IMG/VR virus record: IMGVR_UViG_3300042887_000598
Coordinates: 5,921 to 69,920 of that record
Length of the DNA: 64,000 bases
Reading direction: 5' to 3' (one strand)
Source of the DNA: a virus
In this document: positions 1-46,311 of the stretch, piece after piece
Layout: the number at the start of each line of letters is the position of its first letter
How positions within the stretch are numbered: position 1 is the first letter of the stretch
The notes under the pieces: generated by a model
Seen by the model: the letters and a program-made list of their open reading frames with translations, nothing else
What the model was told of the DNA's origin: nothing
The model's database searches: none
Made by a program: the position numbers and the translations under genes

Positions 1-2
1 CA

Positions 3-386
3 ACTCTTGATCGTATAGACAACAACGGCCCGTACTCTCCTGATAACTGCCGCTGGGCAACGCGAGATGAGCAGGCAAACAACAAGCGCAACAACCACTG
101 GATAACTGCAAGCGGCAAGACCCAGACTATGGCTCAGTGGGCAAAAGAGCTGGGGTGCAATCCAAGCAACATCATCTACCGTCTCCGAACTGGAATGTCG
201 CCAGAGGAGGCTGTTACCAAGCCGATTGCAGACCGTCCAAACTCCAAGCTCACCGAAGATGATGCGCGGTATGTCAAAGAGAACTATCCTGTGCTGACTT
301 CAAGTCAGCTTGCAGTTAAACTTGGCGTAAGCAAGAAAACAGTGCTCAACATCATCCACGGCAAAACTTTTAGGGATGTGCAATGA
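3..386 (+). CDS. HNH homing endonuclease with C-terminal HTH (5'-truncated at window edge)
   Basis: The frame is open from base 3: [29 protein letters not shown] (HNH-type DRIDNxGxYxPxNCRW motif), continuing into ORF 129..386. Confidence 0.85.
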
Positions 387-567: not shown

Positions 568-3500
568 ATGGATCGCTTCTGGGTTGGCGGAACTGGCACT
601 TGGAATACAAGCAGCACTACAAACTGGTCTGCTACCTCTGGCGGGGGTGGCGGTGCGTCTGTCCCTACAGCGGCTGACTCAGTATTTTTTGACCAAGCAG
701 GGACGTACACTGTCACCATGACGGGCGGATTGACCTGTCTTGACTTTACGGTGTCAGCGGGTACAGTTACATTTAGTGGCACGGGCACACCAACTATTAG
801 CGGATCAATGTCGCTTATTACGGGTACTCTTTGGCCTGCAACTGGATTTATTACATTTAACGCTACAACTACCGGAAAAACCGTTACAACAAATGGCGTA
901 TCATTTGCAGGATATATTATTTTTAATGGTATTGGTGGGTATTGGACTCTTGGTAGTTCTTTAACATCAACAAGTTCAACCGCTTTTCAAATAGGCGGCG
1001 GTACATTTGATACTGGAGGATATGCTTTAACTGTTTTTAACATAAACCTATCTTTTGCTGCAAACACAAGAGCAATTAAATTAAATAATTCGACAGTTAC
1101 ACTTACTGGCTCTGGTTCTGCTGTATTTTTATCCGCAGGCTCCAACACACTAACATTTGATGCTGGAACATCTCAAATAAACATAACCGCAGCTGGCAAC
1201 ATTGCAAACAACAGCACCTCTCCTGCAATAACATTAAATTTTTATAATGTTGCATTTACATCTACGGCAGCAGGTACTCGGTCTATCAGCGGCACAAACA
1301 CATTCAACAACCTGTCCGTTACCGGGCCTGCATCCGCTGGCCTAGTTACAGTCACCTTTGACTCCCGTCAAACCATCAACGGCACACTGTCCACCACAGG
1401 CACAGCAGGTAACAGGCGCGTATTCTTTGCATCAGCCACTTACGGCATCTCGACTGACCTCGTGGTCAACTCTGCCCCAAGCCTGACAGACGCAGACTTC
1501 CGTGGCCTGTACGTCCGCGGCACAGCAGCCCCTATCAGCGGAACACGCATCGGCAATCGCGGTGAGTGCAGGGGCATCACGTTCAGTACGCCTAAGACGG
1601 TGTATTGGAACTTGGCGGGCGTTCAGAGTTGGACCGCCAATGCTTGGGCAACCACACCAACAGGCACGCCGTCCACAGATAACTTTCCACTCCCACAAGA
1701 CACCGCTACGTTTACAAACGCAGGGTCAGTAACCGGAAACATTTCTCTTGGTGCTGTGATTGGTAGCATTGATATGTCTGGTCGCACAAGCGCCATGACG
1801 CTTGCTTTGTCGACTGCTACAGTTTACGGAAACTGGGCAAACGGATCGGGAACTACGCTAACAAACGCCGTAACGCTCACCTTCTCTGGCGGCACTACCC
1901 AAACCATCACCAGCGCAGGAAGAACCTTTTCATGCGGCATCACCATCGACACCTACGGCGGCACAGTACAGCTTGCTGATGCGTTAAACATTGGGTCGCA
2001 GTCTTTGACGGTGACAAACGGTACGTTTGCTACGGCGGGGTATGCGGTAACTGCTGGGGCTTTGTCGTCCAACAACAGCAACGTCAGGACTATTACGCTC
2101 GGGTCGAGTACGGTTTCAATTATTCAATTTGGTGTTGCGTTTGGAACTGCAACAAACCTTACTTTTAATGCCGGAACCTCCACCATTGACCTTTCAGGAG
2201 TTGGATCAGGGATTGCTGTTGGAGCAGGACTTACTTTCTATAATGTTAATTTTAGTTATACCGCTAGCACTGGAACTTCGCACAGTATTGCTGCAAGTGG
2301 AGCATCGTGCATTTTTAATAATATAACGGTAACTACGGCGCCCAGTGCAGGTATAAAAACAATCTCAATCGGTGTAAATCAAACCATCACCGGAACTTTG
2401 ACTGTCGCAGGCGCTTCCGCAGTCCGGCGCATCTTCTTGCGTTCAGACACCATCGGCACTCCGCGCACCCTGACTGTCAACGCCATCTCTGCCACTGACT
2501 GCGACTTTTGTGACATTAACCTTGCCGGGACTGCATCAGGCGCATCGCCTACACGCGCAGGTAACTGCGGCGGCAACACAGGCATCACGTTCCCCGCACC
2601 CAAAACCGTTTACTGGAACCTTGCTGGCACGCAAAACTGGAGTGCTACGGCTTGGGCTACAGGGTCTGGTGGTACACCTGCCATCAACAACTTCCCGCTG
2701 GCTCAAGACACTGCGGTGTTTGACAATGCGGGTTCTGCTGACACTGTAACCATTAATGCTGTATGGAACATTGGCACGTTTGACGCTTCACTGCGTACCA
2801 GTGCAATGACGCTAACAATTAGTTCTTCTTGTGTAACCTATGGCGACTGGAAGTTTGGCACAGGCGTTACATCGGCTGTCACGGCAACACTTGAATTTAC
2901 TAAAAACGGTACTCAAACAATAACCAGTAATGGCGTCCAATTTGGCTGCTCGTTAACAATAAACAACCCATTTGGAAACGTACAGCTTGCTGATGCTTTG
3001 CTGTTGGAATCGACAAAAGGTATAGTTCTTGCAAGAGGCACGTTTGATGCTGTCACTTATAACGTGACAACAGGGCTGTTTAGCAATGGTTCTACAGCAA
3101 ACACTTTGCGGATGGGGTCTGGCACTTGGACTTTATCTGGTACAGGTGCTGTGTGGAATTGCGCTACTGCACCGACACTTATCGCCAGCACATCTACGAT
3201 AGTTCTTTCTAACACATCAACAACCACAAGAACTTTTGCTGGCGGCGGTCTTTACTACAACAAGCTGACAATTGGCGGCACAACGGGAATATCAACTTTA
3301 CTGCTTCAGGGCAGCAACACATTTGGCGAACTTGCATCTACAAAAACAGTAGCGCACACAATTTTATTTGATTCCGGCTCAACCAATACTTTTGGCAAAT
3401 GGTCCATCACTGGAACCGCTGGTAACGTAGTCACCCTTAACTCAAATGCCGCAACCATAGCCTATAATTTTTCTATCGCAGGACCCGCTAACAGCGGCAT

Positions 3501-6500
3501 TGATTACCTGTCTGTTCGAGATTGCCTTGTTTCCGCCACAAGCCCCGGCGAGTTTTACGTTGGCGCAAACAGCACGAACGTATCCAACAACACTCGCGTT
3601 GTTTTTACAGCTACCCCTGCACCTCGCACACTGTATTGGGTAGGCGGCACAGGCAATTGGTCATCCACAACCAAGTGGGACACAACATCTGGTGGTGGTG
3701 GTGGAGCAGCTATCCCCACATCTTTGGATGCGGTCAACTTTAATTCGCTTTCCAACGCCACAGCCTACACAGCCACAATTGACGCTGGTGTAACGCTTGC
3801 CCGATGCGCCTCGTTCACAATGGCTGGCCCGTTAACTGGCAACGTGACCTTTGCTGGCACTGTGGGTATTGCCTTCCACGGCAACGTGAGTTTTGCTGCT
3901 ACGGGTATTACTCGGACGTACAACGGCTCAATGCAGTGGGCTGGCAACAGCAGTTACACGTTTAATACTGGTGGAAATTTGTTTTCTGGGTCTGCGGTTA
4001 ACGTTATTGGTATTGGAGCAACGTGGACACTTGCTAATTCTATATTTTTAGCTGGGAATATCTTAACAATTACTTATGGAACATTTGACACCTCCACCAG
4101 TAATTACCAAATAACCACAGGAAGATTAGATTCTGCAAATCGTAATATAAGGTCTATTTTATTAAACGGCTCAACAATTATTTCTGCTGCGCTAGGCGGC
4201 ACAACAATTCAGCTTGCTATTACTACAAATTTAACATTTAATGCGGGGACATCAACTTTTTCTTTGCAAAACGGCCTCGCAGCTATTAGTTCTGGCGGTT
4301 TGACTTTTAACAACGTCAGCTTTACTAGCACATCAGCATCAGGCATCACCATTACGGGTGCAAACACATTTAACACACTGTCGTTTGCTGGCCGCACATC
4401 TGTCGGCATTACACCTGTCACATTCAGTGCTGACCAAACCATCAGCACACTGACGCTGAACGCTGGAACAGCATCTGCCTACCGCACGTTCTTGGCATCT
4501 GACACCATCGGCACAACCAGAACATTGACGGTTGGCACTCTGACTGCTGGCGCTGCTGACATTGACTTCCGCGACATTACCATTGCTGGCGCTGCTGCAC
4601 CGATCTCAGGCACTCGGTTTGGTGACGCCAAAGGTAACAGCGGGATTACGTTCCCTGCGGCTAAGACTGTTTATTGGGCTTTGGCAACCAGCAACAACTG
4701 GGGAAGCACTGGATCAGGTTCGTGGTCTGCAACAAACGGCGGCTCGGCAGCGGCGGATCAGTTTCCTCTGGCACAAGACACGGCGTTTATACCGTTTGCC
4801 AGACCCAACAACAACCAAACCATCACAGTCAACGCCAACTACAACATTGGCACACTTGACATGAACGAGCGCAACGGCAGTGCGCTGGTGACGCTGGCGA
4901 CAGGTACAACTTTATCAACAGTTTACGGAAACTGGGTTAACGGCACAGGGACTACGCTGACAGGTGCAAATTTACTAACTTTTGCTGGGCGCGGCACTCA
5001 AACAATTACCAGTGCCGGTAGGACATTTACTCAATTTATTAGTGTGCAAAGTCCGGGCGGTAATGTTTTATTGGGGGATGCTTTATTATGCGACGGCTCT
5101 GGCACTTCACTTCGCGTTAACGCAGGGACTTTTAATGCTAACGGTTATAACGTAACACTTTCTAGTGGCGGTTTTTCGCTTTCAGTTGTTTCTACGGGCA
5201 GCAGAAATGTTAATGTTGGCTCTGGAACATGGGTGCTAGCAGGATCATCTTTTATATGGGACGCAACTGCATTGATTGGAATTACCGTAACAGGCACAGG
5301 CACGATCAATTTAACCTCTGCATCCGCCAAAACATTTTCTGGCGGCAGCATCTCTTACTCCGGCATCACCCTCAACCAAGGCGGCGCAGGTACGTTGACC
5401 ATTTCTGGCAACAATACCTTCAAGACCATCACCAACACCTACAGTGCTACAGGTGCAACAACCATTGCTTTGGGTGCTACAACGCAGACTCTGACGCAAC
5501 CTTGGACAGCAACAGGCGAAGCAGGACGGGTACTGACCATCAGCGGCACATCCGCAGCATCTCCCGGCATTTTGAGGTTTACCGGAGCAGGTCAAGCAGC
5601 CAACGTAGACTATCTGGCAATCAACAACGTCAGGGCATACAATTTGACAGACACTTGGTATGCTGGAGCCAATTCCACCAACGGCGGGACGTTAGGTTGG
5701 TACTTCATTGCCGCAGGCGGTACGGTTTACGCCGTCACCATCACCGAAACCGGAACAGGCACAGACAGCATTACGGCCAGCATAACTTTGCTTGGTTCAG
5801 TCTCAGAAACCGGAACCGGTACAGATTCCTTCTCTGCTGGTTTGGCGTACACCGGAGACATTACAGAGTCAGGCACTGTTACTGATGAAGTGTCTGCCAG
5901 ATTCCTCTTCCTTGGGGCTATCAGCGAAAACGCTACAGGCGAAGACCTTACAGCGGCCATCATGACCGCGCTTGGCAACATCTCTGAGACAGCCACCGGT
6001 ACGGACACGGACAGCGCCAATTTGACGGTAACACCAGCCGTAAGCGAGACCGCAACAGGAACCGACACCGAAAGCGCAAGACTGAGCGCAAACTCAAACA
6101 TCAGCGAAACAGCCACCGCAACGGACTCAGTGGCGGCTTTGGCAAGGCTCTTGGCTGCTGTTTCAGAGGCTGCAACTGCCACCGACCTCACAGACTCAAT
6201 CAAGGGCCTGTTTGCTTACATCGTTGAGTCAGCCAGCATCACTGACGCCCTGAACGCACCGGGCAGCACATACAACCCCTCCTTGAGCGAGACCGCTACA
6301 ACCACCGACAGCATCTCTGCGTTGGCCCGTTTTGCCGTTCAGGTTACAGAGTCGGCCAGCATCACCGATGCAACCGCTGCGTTTAAAGCTTACTTGGCCG
6401 CAATACTGGAGGCTGCTTCCGGCTCAGACGCCGTTTCTCCCCGTTACATTGCCAACCCAGCCATCAGCGAGACGGCCACGGGCGCAGACACAGACGCCGC

Positions 6501-42693: not shown

Positions 42694-43023
42694 GAGGGCA
42701 AATGGGAAGAGAGCAAAAACCGGAGGCGATCAAAAAGGTCGCCAGCGTTTGGGACTACAAAGACAGGCCCAGCATCATGGCGAAGGATCAAACCCTGCGC
42801 CGCTCACAGTCAGCAACCAAAGGTCGTGTAATGCACGGCGATTTACCTGTAAACATGTGGTTTTTTAAGGAGAAGAAATGAACGAAGCACGAGAAAAGTT
42901 TGAGGCCATATTGGTCGCAAAAGGCAAGAGCAAGCCCGACTGGGACGGCCAGAAGTACGACAACATCAACATCCAGACCTACTGGCGCTGGTTTCTTTTG
43001 GGATGGACTATGAAGGACGGCAA

Positions 43024-43848
43024 ATGAACAAGGTAATGAACATCGGCGCTCTCGTGATGGACGAGCGCTTGCAATCCAGAACAGAGATCAACGAGGAGAC
43101 GGTATCGGACTACGCAGATGCTATTGGCACCGGCGCTGAGTTCCCTGCGGTGCTGGTCTATTTCGATGGCATCAACTACTACCTCACGGACGGCTACCAC
43201 CGAGTGCTCGCGCATAAGCGTGCGCAGAAGGTATCCATCCTGTGTGATGTAGTCCACGGCACCATGCGCGATGCCATCTTGCACTCCACTGGGGTTAATG
43301 CAAAGCACGGCATGCGGCGCACATACGCAGACAAGCGCAAGGCTGTGATGACCTTGCTCGATGACTTCGAGTGGAGCGACTGGAGCAATGCAGAGATCGC
43401 ACGGCGCTGCGGTGTGTCGGCACCTTTTGTAGCCAGCCTGAGAGACAGCGGTGGCGCGACAGAAGTTAAGTACAAAACCCCGAGCGGCAACGTAGCGACC
43501 AAAGCAAAAGCACCCGGTCGTCAGGCAAAAGAAAAAGAGCCGGAGCTCAAGGGCCCCGAGATAATTCCAGAGCAGCACGAGCAGGGCGATCAGAACCAAG
43601 AGGCCATCGACATGCTGTTGGCTGAGAACGAAGAGCTGAAGGCGCGTGTGGCAGTTGTGGCAATGGACGGCACACCCGAAGAAAAGCAAGCAGCCACAGA
43701 CATGATCAACGAGTTGCGTGAAGAGCTGCGCATCACCAAGATCGAGCTGAACGCAGTCAAGCAAAGCCGTGATCAGTATCAATCAGAAAATAGCCAGTTA
43801 AAAAAGCAAGTGATGTCGATGCAGCGTCAACTCAAGAAAGCTGCGTGA
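43024..43848 (+). CDS. ParB/Srx-like N-terminal domain protein with HTH and coiled coil
   Basis: LQSR..I.EETV..YA...FPAVLV...LTDGYHRVLA; WSNAEIARRCGVS. Confidence 0.75.
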   Translation: MNKVMNIGALVMDERLQSRTEINEETVSDYADAIGTGAEFPAVLVYFDGINYYLTDGYHRVLAHKRAQKVSILCDVVHGTMRDAILHSTGVNAKHGMRRTYADKRKAVMTLLDDFEWSDWSNAEIARRCGVSAPFVASLRDSGGATEVKYKTPSGNVATKAKAPGRQAKEKEPELKGPEIIPEQHEQGDQNQEAIDMLLAENEELKARVAVVAMDGTPEEKQAATDMINELREELRITKIELNAVKQSRDQYQSENSQLKKQVMSMQRQLKKAA

Positions 43849-43896
43849 TCATTGCCCAAGCCAGCGGGCATGTGTGCTGGCAGTTGGAGAAACCAA

Positions 43897-46311
43897 ATGA
43901 GTTTGCAATTACGAGGGTATCAGCTTGATACATTGGACGGCTTGAGGCGAGGCTTTGCCGCGGGGTACAAGGCCCAAATGCTTTATAGCCCGACTGGTGG
44001 CGGCAAGACTGAGATGGCAATCGCCTTGCTCGATGCCACCAAGAAGAAGGGCAACCGAGCAGCGATGATTTTGGACCGCATCATCTTGTGCGACCAGACA
44101 AGCCAGCGCCTTGAGAAGTACGACATCGACCACGGTGTCTTGCAGTCAGGTCACTGGCGGTACAGGCCATACGAGAACATCCAAGTGTGCAGCGCTCAGA
44201 CGCTGGAGAAGCGCGGCTCTTTTCCCGGCCTTACGCTGATGATCGTTGATGAGGCGCACGCCATGCGCAGACAGACCATCGAGTTCATAAAGAACAATCC
44301 AGACATCAAGGTCATTGGTCTGAGTGCATCACCCTTCACAAAAGGGCTGGGCAACGTGTATGAGAGTGTTGTCAGCACGGTCACGACCAAAGAGCTGGTG
44401 GACCAGAAGGTGCTCTGCCCTCTGCGTGTGTTCGTCGCCAAAGAGATCGACATGACTGGTGCCAAGAAGGTTGCCGGCGAGTGGAGTCAGGCCGAGTCAA
44501 CCAAGCGCGGCATGCAGATCACTGGTGACATCGTGTCCGAGTGGATCAAAAAGACGCACGAGATATTTGGTCGCCCTCGCAAGACGATCATCTTCTGTTC
44601 TGGCGTGGAGCACGGCGCCGACCTGTCCAAGAAGTTTGCAGAGCAAGGCTACAACTTCATCAGCATTTCCTACAAGGATGAGGACGAGTTCAAGCGCGAG
44701 GTTATTGAGGACTTCAGCAAGCCAGACACGGAGATTCATGGCCTGATCGCCACGGACATCCTGACCAAGGGGTTTGATGTGCCTGATGTGATGATCGGCG
44801 TGAGCGCTCGCCCGTTCAGCAAGTCACTGTCCTCTCACGTCCAGCAGATGGGCCGCGTGATGCGTGGCTATCCCGACAAGGAGTTTGCGGTGTGGCTGTG
44901 CTTGGCAAAAGGAAGCCTTGTTTTGACAGACTCTGGTCTTGTTCCGATTGACAAAGTAAAGATGACCCATAAAATATGGGATGGAACTAACTTTGTAACT
45001 CACGGTGGGGCAATTTGCAATGGAATCCAAGAAGTCATCACGTACCAAGGTCTTACGGCGACCGCAGGACACCTTGTCCACACTGCCGAAGGTTGGCGCA
45101 CCTTTGGGGAGTGTGCCAGCCAACAAATCAGAATCACACAGACCGGATTTGGTGGGCAAGCGATACGGCTCGGTGATGATTTACGACCCACAAGTTTTTT
45201 GGTTGGGCGCACGGCAAAGAAGATTCATTCACGTCTTGTGCGAGTGCGTGACTTGTGGGTACAGAAATTTAATCAGCCTTCAAAATCTACAAACGGGAAA
45301 GACGAAGGGTTGCAGGGCTTGCAATCAACCAGATGTGTCGTACCCGATGTGGCTTTACAACAGAGTTCAGGGAATGCGTGCTCGATGCTGCTCTCCGGCG
45401 TGCGATCAGTACCCGGCGTACGGCGGTCGCGGAGTGGAGTTCAGGTTCTCTGGCGTCAAGCAGGGTACGCTTTGGATTATGGAAAATCTTGGGCTTCCAA
45501 AGTTTTCGTCTACCTCGGATCGCTCGCGCATTCAGTTGGACAGAATAGACCCGAATGGGCATTACGAGCCGGGCAATCTTCGTTGGCTTTCTGTGGAATT
45601 GAACCAGCAAAACAAAAGGGGGAACCAGTCTGTCGCTCGGATGCACAAGTTCAGGATGGATCACCCGGAAATTCGATACTCAGACAGCACGTTGAAGCGT
45701 TTCTTTTGGGCTGGCATGACGGCGGAAGAGATTGTGGAAAGGTACAGCAAACCCTCGGTAAAGCCGAAAGGGAAGTATGGGACATACTCGACGCCGGACC
45801 CCACAATCGCTTCACTTGTGAGGGACTCCTAGTCCACAACTGTCATTCCGGCAACTACCTGCGGTTCCGAGAGGACTGGGAGGAGATTTACAACAACGGC
45901 GTGCATGAGCTGGACGACGGCAAAGAGAAGGCCAAGAAAGAAAAGACCGAGAAGGAAAAGGAAGCTGCCAAGTGCCCCAAGTGTGGACACCTATGGGCTG
46001 GCGGGTCGGACACTTGCATTCACTGCGGATACACCCGCGAGAAGCGCAGCATGGTGGAGTCAGTGCCGGGAGAAATGGAGGAGCTGCGAGCAGCAGCCAC
46101 TCGGGAAAGCAAGCAAGACTGGTACAGCATGTGCCAGTACATGGTCAAGTACCACGGATGGAGCACAGGCAGAGCAGCCCACACCTACAAGGACAAGTTT
46201 GGCGTCTGGCCCAAGGGTCTGGCGGAAACGCCGAAAGCCCCGAGCATAGAGTTTGATAAGGCGGTGAAGGCCGCTCTGATTCGTTACCTCAAAGGAAAGG
46301 GAAAGAGATGA
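43897..46311 (+). CDS. superfamily 2 (DEAH) helicase with intein and C-terminal Zn finger
   Basis: SPTGGGKT, IVDEAH, LSASP, LTKGFDVPD, QQMGRVMR, CPKC..CIHC; ATG 43897 after GGAGA RBS. Confidence 0.92.
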   Translation: MSLQLRGYQLDTLDGLRRGFAAGYKAQMLYSPTGGGKTEMAIALLDATKKKGNRAAMILDRIILCDQTSQRLEKYDIDHGVLQSGHWRYRPYENIQVCSAQTLEKRGSFPGLTLMIVDEAHAMRRQTIEFIKNNPDIKVIGLSASPFTKGLGNVYESVVSTVTTKELVDQKVLCPLRVFVAKEIDMTGAKKVAGEWSQAESTKRGMQITGDIVSEWIKKTHEIFGRPRKTIIFCSGVEHGADLSKKFAEQGYNFISISYKDEDEFKREVIEDFSKPDTEIHGLIATDILTKGFDVPDVMIGVSARPFSKSLSSHVQQMGRVMRGYPDKEFAVWLCLAKGSLVLTDSGLVPIDKVKMTHKIWDGTNFVTHGGAICNGIQEVITYQGLTATAGHLVHTAEGWRTFGECASQQIRITQTGFGGQAIRLGDDLRPTSFLVGRTAKKIHSRLVRVRDLWVQKFNQPSKSTNGKDEGLQGLQSTRCVVPDVALQQSSGNACSMLLSGVRSVPGVRRSRSGVQVLWRQAGYALDYGKSWASKVFVYLGSLAHSVGQNRPEWALRAGQSSLAFCGIEPAKQKGEPVCRSDAQVQDGSPGNSILRQHVEAFLLGWHDGGRDCGKVQQTLGKAEREVWDILDAGPHNRFTCEGLLVHNCHSGNYLRFREDWEEIYNNGVHELDDGKEKAKKEKTEKEKEAAKCPKCGHLWAGGSDTCIHCGYTREKRSMVESVPGEMEELRAAATRESKQDWYSMCQYMVKYHGWSTGRAAHTYKDKFGVWPKGLAETPKAPSIEFDKAVKAALIRYLKGKGKR
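44899..45840 (+). mobile_element. intein (314 aa) in the helicase
   Basis: Starts CLAKGSLVLT, block B ATAGHLV, ends EVWDI...NRFTCEGLLVHN followed by +1 Cys; removal restores AVWL/CHSGNYLRF. Confidence 0.92.
45020..45832 (+). CDS. HNH endonuclease nested in the +1 frame inside the intein
   Basis: DLVGKRYG...CECVTCG...GCRAC...MRARC...YPAYGGRGV...LDRIDPNGHYEPGNLRW; exact start uncertain. Confidence 0.85.
   Translation: MESKKSSRTKVLRRPQDTLSTLPKVGAPLGSVPANKSESHRPDLVGKRYGSVMIYDPQVFWLGARQRRFIHVLCECVTCGYRNLISLQNLQTGKTKGCRACNQPDVSYPMWLYNRVQGMRARCCSPACDQYPAYGGRGVEFRFSGVKQGTLWIMENLGLPKFSSTSDRSRIQLDRIDPNGHYEPGNLRWLSVELNQQNKRGNQSVARMHKFRMDHPEIRYSDSTLKRFFWAGMTAEEIVERYSKPSVKPKGKYGTYSTPDPTIASLVRDS

Follow-up and report, generated by a model that had tools for sequence, protein, structure and literature searches.

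An intein in a phage helicase gene from lake water with a putative homing nuclease gene nested in its +1 reading frame

Can the DNA of an intein serve two genes at once, one read in the frame of the host protein and the other, for a candidate homing endonuclease, read in the +1 frame? This question arises at a helicase gene in a 64,000-nucleotide stretch of viral DNA (positions 5,921 to 69,920 of the IMG/VR virus record IMGVR_UViG_3300042887_000598), referred to here as the window. The window covers 64 kb of a 69,920-base viral record whose completeness is rated at 100%, and the metagenome runs containing its sequence come from lake water. A first-pass annotation made from the letters alone had proposed that the helicase frame stays open through a 314-residue intein and that an HNH nuclease is encoded in the overlapping +1 frame. 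Our findings indicate that both frames are under selection, and they are consistent with a two-gene element that may spread by homing. Three features, given in window positions, define the locus.

43897..46311, + strand: SF2 (superfamily 2; ResIII/Helicase_C) phage helicase precursor gene; 804 codons and a stop; predicted length after splicing, 490 amino acids
44899..45840, + strand: class-1 intein, 314 codons, Cys1 ... His313-Asn314; helicase frame without a stop throughout
45020..45832, + strand: nested His-Me-finger (HNH_3-like) putative homing endonuclease gene, +1 frame, 270 codons plus TAG

The exact intein coordinates proposed in the first-pass annotation were confirmed by a listing of open reading frames (ORFs) and by translation. 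The +1 ORF at 45005..45832 encodes 275 amino acids from a GTG codon, or 270 from the ATG at 45020, and ends with a stop at 45830-45832; the frame is already open from 44999, upstream of its ATG. This ATG lies 121 nucleotides past the first intein base and the stop lies 11 nucleotides before the last, such that the nested gene overlaps both splicing regions, as had been claimed. The dual-coding DNA (45020-45832) amounts to 813 nucleotides, in agreement with the earlier estimate of more than 800. The nested TAG straddles the Leu-Val codons of the LVHN sequence that ends the intein, and a stop 11 nucleotides before the intein end recurs in 10/10 helicase-type loci with defined bounds. The first ~28 and last ~25 residues of the nested ORF are the +1 reading of conserved intein codons.

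The frequency with which such an open host frame arises by accident was estimated by synonymous shuffling, in which the nested protein and its codon usage were held, 20000 shuffles were made per sequence, and host-frame stops were counted.

Window: host frame open in 0/20000 shuffles; mean stops expected, 12.2
L003 (a relative): open in 0/20000; mean stops expected, 14.4
Streptococcus phage Javan113: open in 0/20000; mean stops expected, 16.1
Gardnerella phage vB_Gva_AB1: open in 0/20000; mean stops expected, 9.3
Jerseyvirus copy (L087): open in 2/20000; mean stops expected, 5.9
Brucella phage Tb (L088): open in 0/20000; mean stops expected, 9.95

The open helicase frame is not due to chance. 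Within the nested gene of the window, a T at the wobble position precedes AA, AG or GA codons in 0/67 cases, compared with 54/202 elsewhere, and across the window, L003, Javan113 and vB_Gva_AB1 the counts are 0 of 64-78 against ~20-30% elsewhere. Because a host-frame stop requires a wobble T before an AA, AG or GA codon, the overlap costs the nuclease gene only some synonymous choice.

Selection on the two frames was compared between the window and two relatives that are ~78% identical to it in DNA, with frame-specific identity and codon-position counts standing in for a formal overlapping-frame ratio of nonsynonymous to synonymous substitution rates (dN/dS). In the core (intein nucleotides 286-840), amino acid identity is 78-84% in the +1 frame and 39-46% in the helicase frame, and 78-97 of the 141-150 differences fall at third positions of the +1 frame. 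For L003, the corresponding values are 84% in the nuclease frame, 39% in the host frame, and 97/141 differences at the nuclease wobble. The pattern is reversed in the N-lobe stretches (nucleotides 1-285), where 32/49 differences between the window and L003 are at the host wobble; the N-terminal splicing lobe retains 85-90% host-frame amino acid identity to the two relatives. Each DNA stretch is thus constrained at the protein level in one frame, with the switch occurring inside the intein. Judged from these substitution patterns, the nested +1 ORF is a real gene under purifying selection, and we have hardly any doubt about the dual-coding layout itself.

This layout recurs widely. A pattern scan of IMG/VR with four nuclease sequences yielded 80 loci, and in 75/80 the host frame (an ORF of 582-1115 codons) is open across the whole nuclease match with the nuclease in the +1 frame relative to it. 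The nuclease ORF reaches at least 230 codons in 71 of those 75 loci. Host genes encode either helicases of the present kind or family-A DNA polymerases interrupted between KGKIAELA and CGYGG, and free-standing or in-frame nuclease copies were found at 0/80 loci. The pattern for the intein ends failed at 27/82 loci, and counts that depend on the intein bounds use only the loci where it worked. More distant relatives of the nuclease are free-standing genes in Enterococcus and Bacillus phages.

One IMG/VR contig (L004/L007, nuclease 73% identical) presents a different arrangement. An indel at ~3180-3300 of L004 fuses the N-extein, N lobe and nuclease into a 644-amino-acid ORF; the remaining parts (linker, C lobe and C-extein) are encoded by another ORF, 334 amino acids long, that overlaps the first. 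A similar fusion occurs in a polymerase (L079). Decay of the copy, an error in sequencing, or an intermediate on the way to a split or in-frame arrangement could each account for the L004/L007 fusion.

In the helicase frame, the insert has the parts expected of an intein.

44899..45150, + strand: N-terminal splicing lobe, intein residues 1-84, with Cys1 and TxxH blocks; AlphaFold (AF2) predicted local distance difference test score (pLDDT) 92-96 for residues 1-80; substitutions mostly at the host-frame wobble
45172..45753, + strand: host-frame read-through of the nested gene, ~194 residues; predicted disordered, a linker between the splicing lobes
45754..45840, + strand: C-terminal splicing lobe, intein residues 286-314, ...VWDILDAGPHNRFTCEGLLVHN; AF2 pLDDT 93-95

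The 314 codons lie between ...KEFAVWL and CHSGNYLRF, start with CLAKGSLVLT and end with LLVHN, followed by Cys. Intein-free homologues, whose exteins are as much as 96% identical, show no gap when aligned over the junction of WL with (D/C)HxGNY, closing exactly at the insertion point. In 27/27 aligned relatives the residues C1, T55, H58, D295, H313 and N314 are invariant, with T55 and H58 forming block B (TxxH; TAGH here) and D295 corresponding to the block F Asp, and the +1 residue is Cys at this site and Ser at a neighbouring helicase site. An AF2 model built from the alignment of 27 relatives has pLDDT values of 92-96 for residues 1-80 and 290-314 and ~32 for residues 92-285. After the low-confidence stretch had been trimmed, comparison by VIA-align with 48,161 PDB representatives returned 30 chains with Z of at least 8, every one of them an intein or another HINT-type domain (Hedgehog, BIL, Vint). 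The highest-scoring match is the splicing domain of the Mtu RecA intein (2imz_A; Z 16.6, root-mean-square deviation [rmsd] 2.5, 117 aligned residues), followed by NpuDnaB (Z 15.8) and gp41-1 (Z 15.6). We are therefore confident that the N and C lobes form a HINT fold, as a predicted rather than a solved structure.

A PDB sequence search with the intein profile gave no match. The middle of the intein in the host frame has no Pfam match, and the sole PHROG match of the intein covers residues 24-75; together with the predicted disorder, this agrees with the earlier observation that the central region carries no endonuclease motifs. From the conserved residues and the modelled fold, we infer that the insert is a genuine class-1 intein that probably splices.

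The host gene and its two exteins are equally well delimited.

43897..44898, + strand: N-extein, 334 amino acids, C-terminal end ...QQMGRVMRGYPDKEFAVWL; placed by alignment with intein-free homologues
45841..45843, + strand: +1 Cys codon, C-extein residue 1; aligned to intein-free homologues
45841..46311, + strand: C-extein, 156 amino acids plus stop, beginning CHSGNYLRF; C-terminal zinc-ribbon-like CPKC...CIHC

The helicase-frame ORF as listed runs from 43852 to 46311 on the + strand (819 amino acids counted from TTG). We set the start at the ATG at 43897, which yields 804 amino acids, and homologues in the alignment begin with MSLQLR. Intein-free homologues are 488-490 amino acids long. The helicase matches ResIII (E 6.5e-14) and Helicase_C (E 5.3e-11) in Pfam and phrog_16 ‘DNA helicase’ in PHROG (E 1.6e-68); Pfam matches to the zinc-ribbon of the C-extein are weak and below threshold. 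The N-extein ends just downstream of what is presumably helicase motif VI. Megablast of the helicase gene against 50,697 phage records produced no match, and the closest named record at the protein level belongs to an uncultured Caudoviricetes sp. (72.8%), so we have no cultured relative of this helicase type at hand.

Among the intein-free helicases in the 120 best matches, the residue at the +1 position is Asp in 38/56 and Cys in 18/56, which bears out the earlier remark that the +1 Cys sits where relatives mostly have Asp. The Cys at this position in 18 intein-free proteins could be a scar of precise intein loss or a pre-adapted target. The gene upstream of the helicase (43003-43848, + strand) ends 4 bases before the TTG at 43852 and ~49 bases before the ATG at 43897.

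How the nested gene might be translated was examined through its start signals.

45004..45010, + strand: Shine-Dalgarno-like GGTGGGG, 9 nucleotides upstream of the nested ATG, inside intein codons His-Gly-Gly; weak in this window

Among 25 representatives with known intein bounds, 24/25 have a start codon at a fixed offset, which is 121 nucleotides in the helicase type (ATG or GTG) and 145 nucleotides in the polymerase type (ATG). In relatives, conserved intein codons create AAAGGAG or AAGGAGGT-like sites ahead of the nested start. The median energy of the duplex with the anti-Shine-Dalgarno sequence is -8.05 kcal/mol, compared with a background mean of -2.85, and in 17/24 the site is among the best 5% of its host gene. 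Because the start occurs at a fixed offset and usually behind a Shine-Dalgarno-like site, these data point to separate internal translation. Internal initiation is thus well supported by sequence comparison for the nested family and moderately so for the copy in this window.

The nested protein itself carries two conserved motif regions.

45245..45322, + strand: CxxC...CxxC zinc-ribbon-like motif, Cys76, 79, 98 and 101; invariant in 38/38 aligned relatives; beta strands at residues 52-86 in the model
45530..45613, + strand: putative beta-beta-alpha-metal core, residues 171-198, QLDRIDPNGHYEPGNLRWLSVELNQQNK; Arg175 at the catalytic His position, invariant loop Tyr182

The ORF includes YGGRG and LDRIDPNGHYEPGNLRW motifs and matches phrog_374 ‘HNH endonuclease’ (E 7.3e-24) and phrog_3377 (E 7e-18). 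Its AF2 model has a mean pLDDT of 80.7, and only residues 1-28 fall below 50 and are predicted to be disordered. The CxxC...CxxC motif is likely to bind zinc. The core QLDRIDPNGHYEPGNLRWLSVELNQQNK models as strand-loop-strand-helix (strands 171-175 and 187-191, helix 192-197). Asn186 and Asn198 are invariant among the 38 relatives and Asn195 is at least 90% conserved, and by analogy these residues may serve in metal binding or loop positioning. The best VIA match of the protein is PacI (3m7k_A), which is a weak similarity (Z 5.2, rmsd 3.4, 80 aligned, residues 104-199). The N-terminal beta domain (39-96) and C-terminal helical domain (199-251) give only matches of Z 3-4, which we leave uninterpreted. 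On the basis of the model and of analogy, we put forward a PacI-like mechanism as a hypothesis.

A free-standing gene of the same His-less nuclease family is present in the same genome. It encodes 185 amino acids, occupies window positions 1-386 (+ strand) with its start ~171 bases before the window (L086:1537-2094), carries a YGGRGI motif, is 31% identical to residues 98-239 of the nested protein, and is flanked by structural-looking genes. This copy is possibly the source of the nested gene or a second mobile copy. The Arg at the catalytic His position is shared by the free-standing copy and by the Jerseyvirus copy.

The mobility of the element was surveyed in the 120 best helicase homologues.

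Intein-free: 56/120
This intein at this site: 46/120
Related intein two residues downstream (between WLDH and SGNY, Ser at +1): 7/120
Related intein after TDILTKGFD (Ser at +1): 6/120
Other, unclassified insert (one with Pfam PF14890): 3/120
Unclassified by length: 2/120

A further helicase insertion site, between KKD and CLLLDFSGN, occurs in L011. The same nested layout was observed in related inteins at other sites of the same helicase (P0082, P0120; L008-L012). The composite element thus seems to have been retargeted several times within ~50 helicase residues. Inserts with other Pfam domains are also found, as P0042 (1158 amino acids) carries PF05203 and P0090 carries PF14890, and P0085 and P0092 share the length class of P0090 (~764 amino acids). 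This helicase seems to be an insertion hotspot used by several families of inteins.

Contigs of four lake metagenomes were compared with the window at 90% likeness. In run X18, one contig joins position 44897 to 45850 via 10 other letters and reads WLDHAGN, which is an intein-free allele. This contig has a depth of 866, with 56 letters on its shorter side, and adjacent intein-bearing contigs have depths of ~1120-1158. Over the 903 positions that it covers (45003-45905), the main intein contig of X18 has 3 differences from the window, while the flanking extein contigs differ at 25/319 and 17/232. For the junction-spanning contig, 20 of its 25 differences are listed, and all 20 lie in the extein. 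The two joints across the intein in run X1, with 23-25 letters on the shorter side, were not relied on. A near-identical intein on a ~9% diverged background beside empty alleles is the signature expected of recent homing.

We consider it likely, with real room for error in single steps, that these observations reflect a two-gene selfish element residing inside a phage helicase gene. The first gene would be the class-1 intein, whose N lobe (1-84) and C lobe (286-314) would make up the HINT splicing domain; self-excision after translation would join ...AVWL to CHSGNY... and yield the 490-amino-acid helicase. The second would be a nuclease gene of free-standing type, located at the position of the endonuclease domain in canonical inteins, although in the +1 frame, and it would initiate at its own ATG at 45020 behind a Shine-Dalgarno-like site within intein codons. 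Ribosomes in the helicase frame would read through this gene and produce a floppy linker of ~194 residues that has no conserved sequence and would be removed with the intein. Selection on the linker frame would only forbid stop codons, at almost no cost. In co-infected cells, the nuclease would cut intein-free alleles (WL-D/C-H-S/A-GNY), and repair would then copy intein and nuclease jointly. Splicing, separate translation, nuclease activity and the nuclease target are all presumed steps in this scheme.

Several findings weigh against parts of it. The catalytic His position is occupied by Arg (in DRID) in 38/38 relatives, so any nuclease activity would need a non-canonical mechanism. Pfam gives no above-threshold match for the nested protein, and HNH_3 is hit in 5/38 relatives at a best E of 0.0033, below threshold. 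Foldseek with its model against the PDB returns nothing at E<=0.001, a PDB sequence search with the nuclease profile returns no match, and the PacI match is tied with an unrelated chain. The nuclease label rests on PHROG family names. The ‘clear HNH’ of the first-pass annotation overstates the case, given the PHROG HNH matches on one side and the Pfam result and the missing catalytic His on the other, and we call the protein an HNH-type nuclease only with this caveat. The Shine-Dalgarno-like site in the window has a duplex energy of -5.6 kcal/mol, which is at the 18th percentile of host-gene positions, and no RNA runs are listed among those that contain the stretch. The 80 IMG/VR loci were picked by nuclease patterns, so inteins free of a nuclease fall outside the sample. 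The host frame is broken or shifted in 5/80 of them: L007 and L079 are frameshifted, L074 and L075 have a host-frame stop near the end, and L082 is cut by the contig end. At four further loci (L034, L071, L083, L084) the nuclease ORF is shortened, as expected if some copies are decaying. The metagenome contigs are short and come from mixed populations, so linkage is local only.

The most serious competing explanation, although an improbable one in our estimate, is that the nested protein is selected for something other than homing, such as DNA binding or another co-opted role, with the intein spreading or persisting by other means, for example ordinary recombination. The replacement of His by Arg and the lack of a significant match to solved nucleases by sequence or by Foldseek would fit this account, and the available text of Jablonska et al. 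(2017, PMC5714182) regards nuclease activity as lost in two groups that have neither the His nor an equivalent Tyr. However, the nested family keeps the beta-beta-alpha pattern with invariant Asn186, Asn198 and loop Tyr182, and PacI, the best fold match despite its weakness, is catalytically active with a loop Tyr standing in for the His. The element is also found at no fewer than four different target sites, always with the nested gene, and bears the population signature of homing. We regard it as quite unlikely that ribosomes instead shift out of the intein frame and make the nuclease fused to the N-extein and N lobe, rather than initiating internally. The fixed-offset start in 24/25 representatives and the strong Shine-Dalgarno-like site in 17/24 argue otherwise, as do the first 28 nested residues, which are predicted to be disordered and are a mere +1 reading of conserved intein codons; frameshifting would draw on the weakness of the site in the window and on a +1 frame that is open from 44999, ahead of the ATG. 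Neither a slippery site nor a stimulatory structure is known here, although no search was aimed at them.

A ShiLan-type insertion, in which nothing is spliced, the helicase retains a 314-residue loop and only the hidden HNH matters, has precedent in the published ShiLan and Pacc40 elements, which combine a hidden out-of-frame HNH with an open host frame (PMC11855218, available text). It is an even poorer fit here than frameshifting, because the catalytic residues of a class-1 intein are all invariant, unlike in ShiLan, the ends of the insert are predicted to fold as a HINT domain (Z 16.6), and the insertion point, just downstream of helicase motif VI, is one at which intein-free alleles are joined precisely. 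An assembly or sequencing frameshift that hides a canonical intein with an in-frame HNH, a concern raised by the first-pass annotation, can for practical purposes be dismissed. Such an artefact would require two compensating errors, whereas the same two-frame layout is seen in 75/80 independent viral contigs and in isolate phage genomes, and the avoidance of host-frame stops is highly non-random. Of the words sampled from the stretch, at least 97% are present in each of 12 runs, although every one of these runs is flagged as a possible source of the DNA; over 44500-45954, a run X1 contig shows 0 differences from the window. Nothing was found in favour of an artefact beyond the related contig L004 (= L007), whose frameshift fuses the N lobe to the nuclease frame.

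Beyond the two-gene selfish element as set out above, a bolder proposal is possible, although we consider it doubtful. The nested proteins may belong to a large family of phage His-Me fingers that resemble PacI in being His-less (invariant DRID, loop Tyr), cut with a tyrosine, travel with the intein as one repeatedly retargeted unit (at least three sites in this helicase, plus polymerase motif B) and are still homing in lake phages today. To our knowledge, although no literature search was aimed at this point, catalysis with Tyr in place of His has so far not been reported for a homing endonuclease, and the His-to-Arg active site poses a testable enzymological question.

The locus also has consequences for annotation and for views of intein evolution. 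In all three isolate-phage records examined that carry a homologous nested nuclease, the nested gene is unannotated and only a single host coding sequence (CDS) is given. Gene callers and annotators miss such elements; therefore, surveys of inteins wrongly class them as mini-inteins or as inteins in decay, and their counts of homing nucleases come out too low. The +1 layout is a clean natural example of cheap overprinting, wherein nothing but the use of wobble bases in the nested gene keeps stops out of the host frame. The case also favours the idea that inteins gain nucleases through invasion by free-standing genes, and a free-standing copy of the same family occurs in the same genome. With the lake metagenomes, empty, filled and diverged alleles can be tracked within a population.

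The first-pass annotation considered reports of this architecture to be rare, which does not hold, since it was published for the brucellaphage terminase TerL in 2015 (PMC4422536) and treated as a class in preprints from 2025 and 2026. The present intein lies in a different host gene and has a different nuclease family from the brucellaphage case, but layouts of this kind are in the literature already. Tevdoradze et al. (2015, PMC4422536) described a TerL intein with a nested out-of-frame HNH in Brucella phages Tb and Pr (Perisivirus). As here, the nuclease gene lies on the same strand in the +1 frame of the intein and the host frame is open; in NC_019446 both genes are annotated (gp07/gp08), and in phage Tb (L088) terL spans 848..3394 and the HNH gene 1671..2357, an offset of 823 that corresponds to +1. 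The host protein there is a terminase, not a helicase, and the HNH is not detectably related to the nested protein here (BLASTP E 2.2). The available text of that paper contains no analysis of selection, start signals or population polymorphism.

Closer relatives are found in Streptococcus Javan prophages and Gardnerella phage vB_Gva_AB1, in which the same intein family (~29-33% identity, same invariant residues) interrupts DNA polymerase I at motif B. Their nucleases belong to the same family (32-34% identity) and lie in the +1 frame with a fixed start and a Shine-Dalgarno site, often with the stop inside LVHN. They differ in the insertion site (between KGKIAELA and CGYGG) and in the start offset (145 rather than 121 nucleotides), and their records annotate one polymerase CDS only. 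The ‘intein-containing DNA polymerase precursor’ of Jerseyvirus (Salmonella phage vB_SpuP_Spp11) likewise has an open host frame and a homologous nuclease (27% identity, E 8e-15) with the DRID motif, but this nuclease is in the +2 frame (offset 1418) and the intein is more distant. In that phage, an unannotated 252-amino-acid nuclease ORF of this family is located at L087:2459-3217, and 155 Salmonella phage records were matched. The Jerseyvirus polymerase intein would be a tractable laboratory system for the layout. In the literature covered, which mostly excluded subscription journals and preprint supplements, no paper was found that describes helicase or polymerase inteins with a nested nuclease of this family.

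Gosselin et al. (2025 preprint) treat inteins with out-of-frame nucleases as a class and propose that they originate when a free-standing homing endonuclease invades an intein. According to the text available, the host-frame middle of those inteins is likewise devoid of recognisable structure, whereas the nuclease is endonuclease VII-like and in ‘frame 3’, and the hosts are polymerase, minor capsid, terminase and thymidylate synthase genes; its main text does not discuss start signals. A 2026 preprint, as far as its available text goes, reports a homing endonuclease encoded out of frame in a cyanobacterial dnaX intein and attributes it to secondary invasion of a mini-intein; empty and filled alleles coexist in populations there as well, but the host gene is cellular. 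The hidden HNH insertions of the ShiLan domain and Pacc40 gp60, as described in the available text of Arsenault et al. (2025, PMC11855218), share the out-of-frame HNH, the stop-free host frame and the sporadic distribution. They have no detectable splicing domain and the insert is thought to be retained, whereas the intein blocks and predicted fold are intact here.

PacI (PDB 3m7k/3ldy) is described in the available text of Jablonska et al. (2017, PMC5714182) as a His-Me finger that lacks the catalytic His and has a loop Tyr in its role. In the nested family, Arg stands at the His position and the loop contains an invariant Tyr182, although the structural match is weak and there is no detectable sequence similarity; PacI is also a restriction enzyme and not part of a mobile intein. 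To these known systems the helicase intein adds the detail of a wobble-only cost, an embedded start signal, a His-less active site, several target sites, and a population snapshot.

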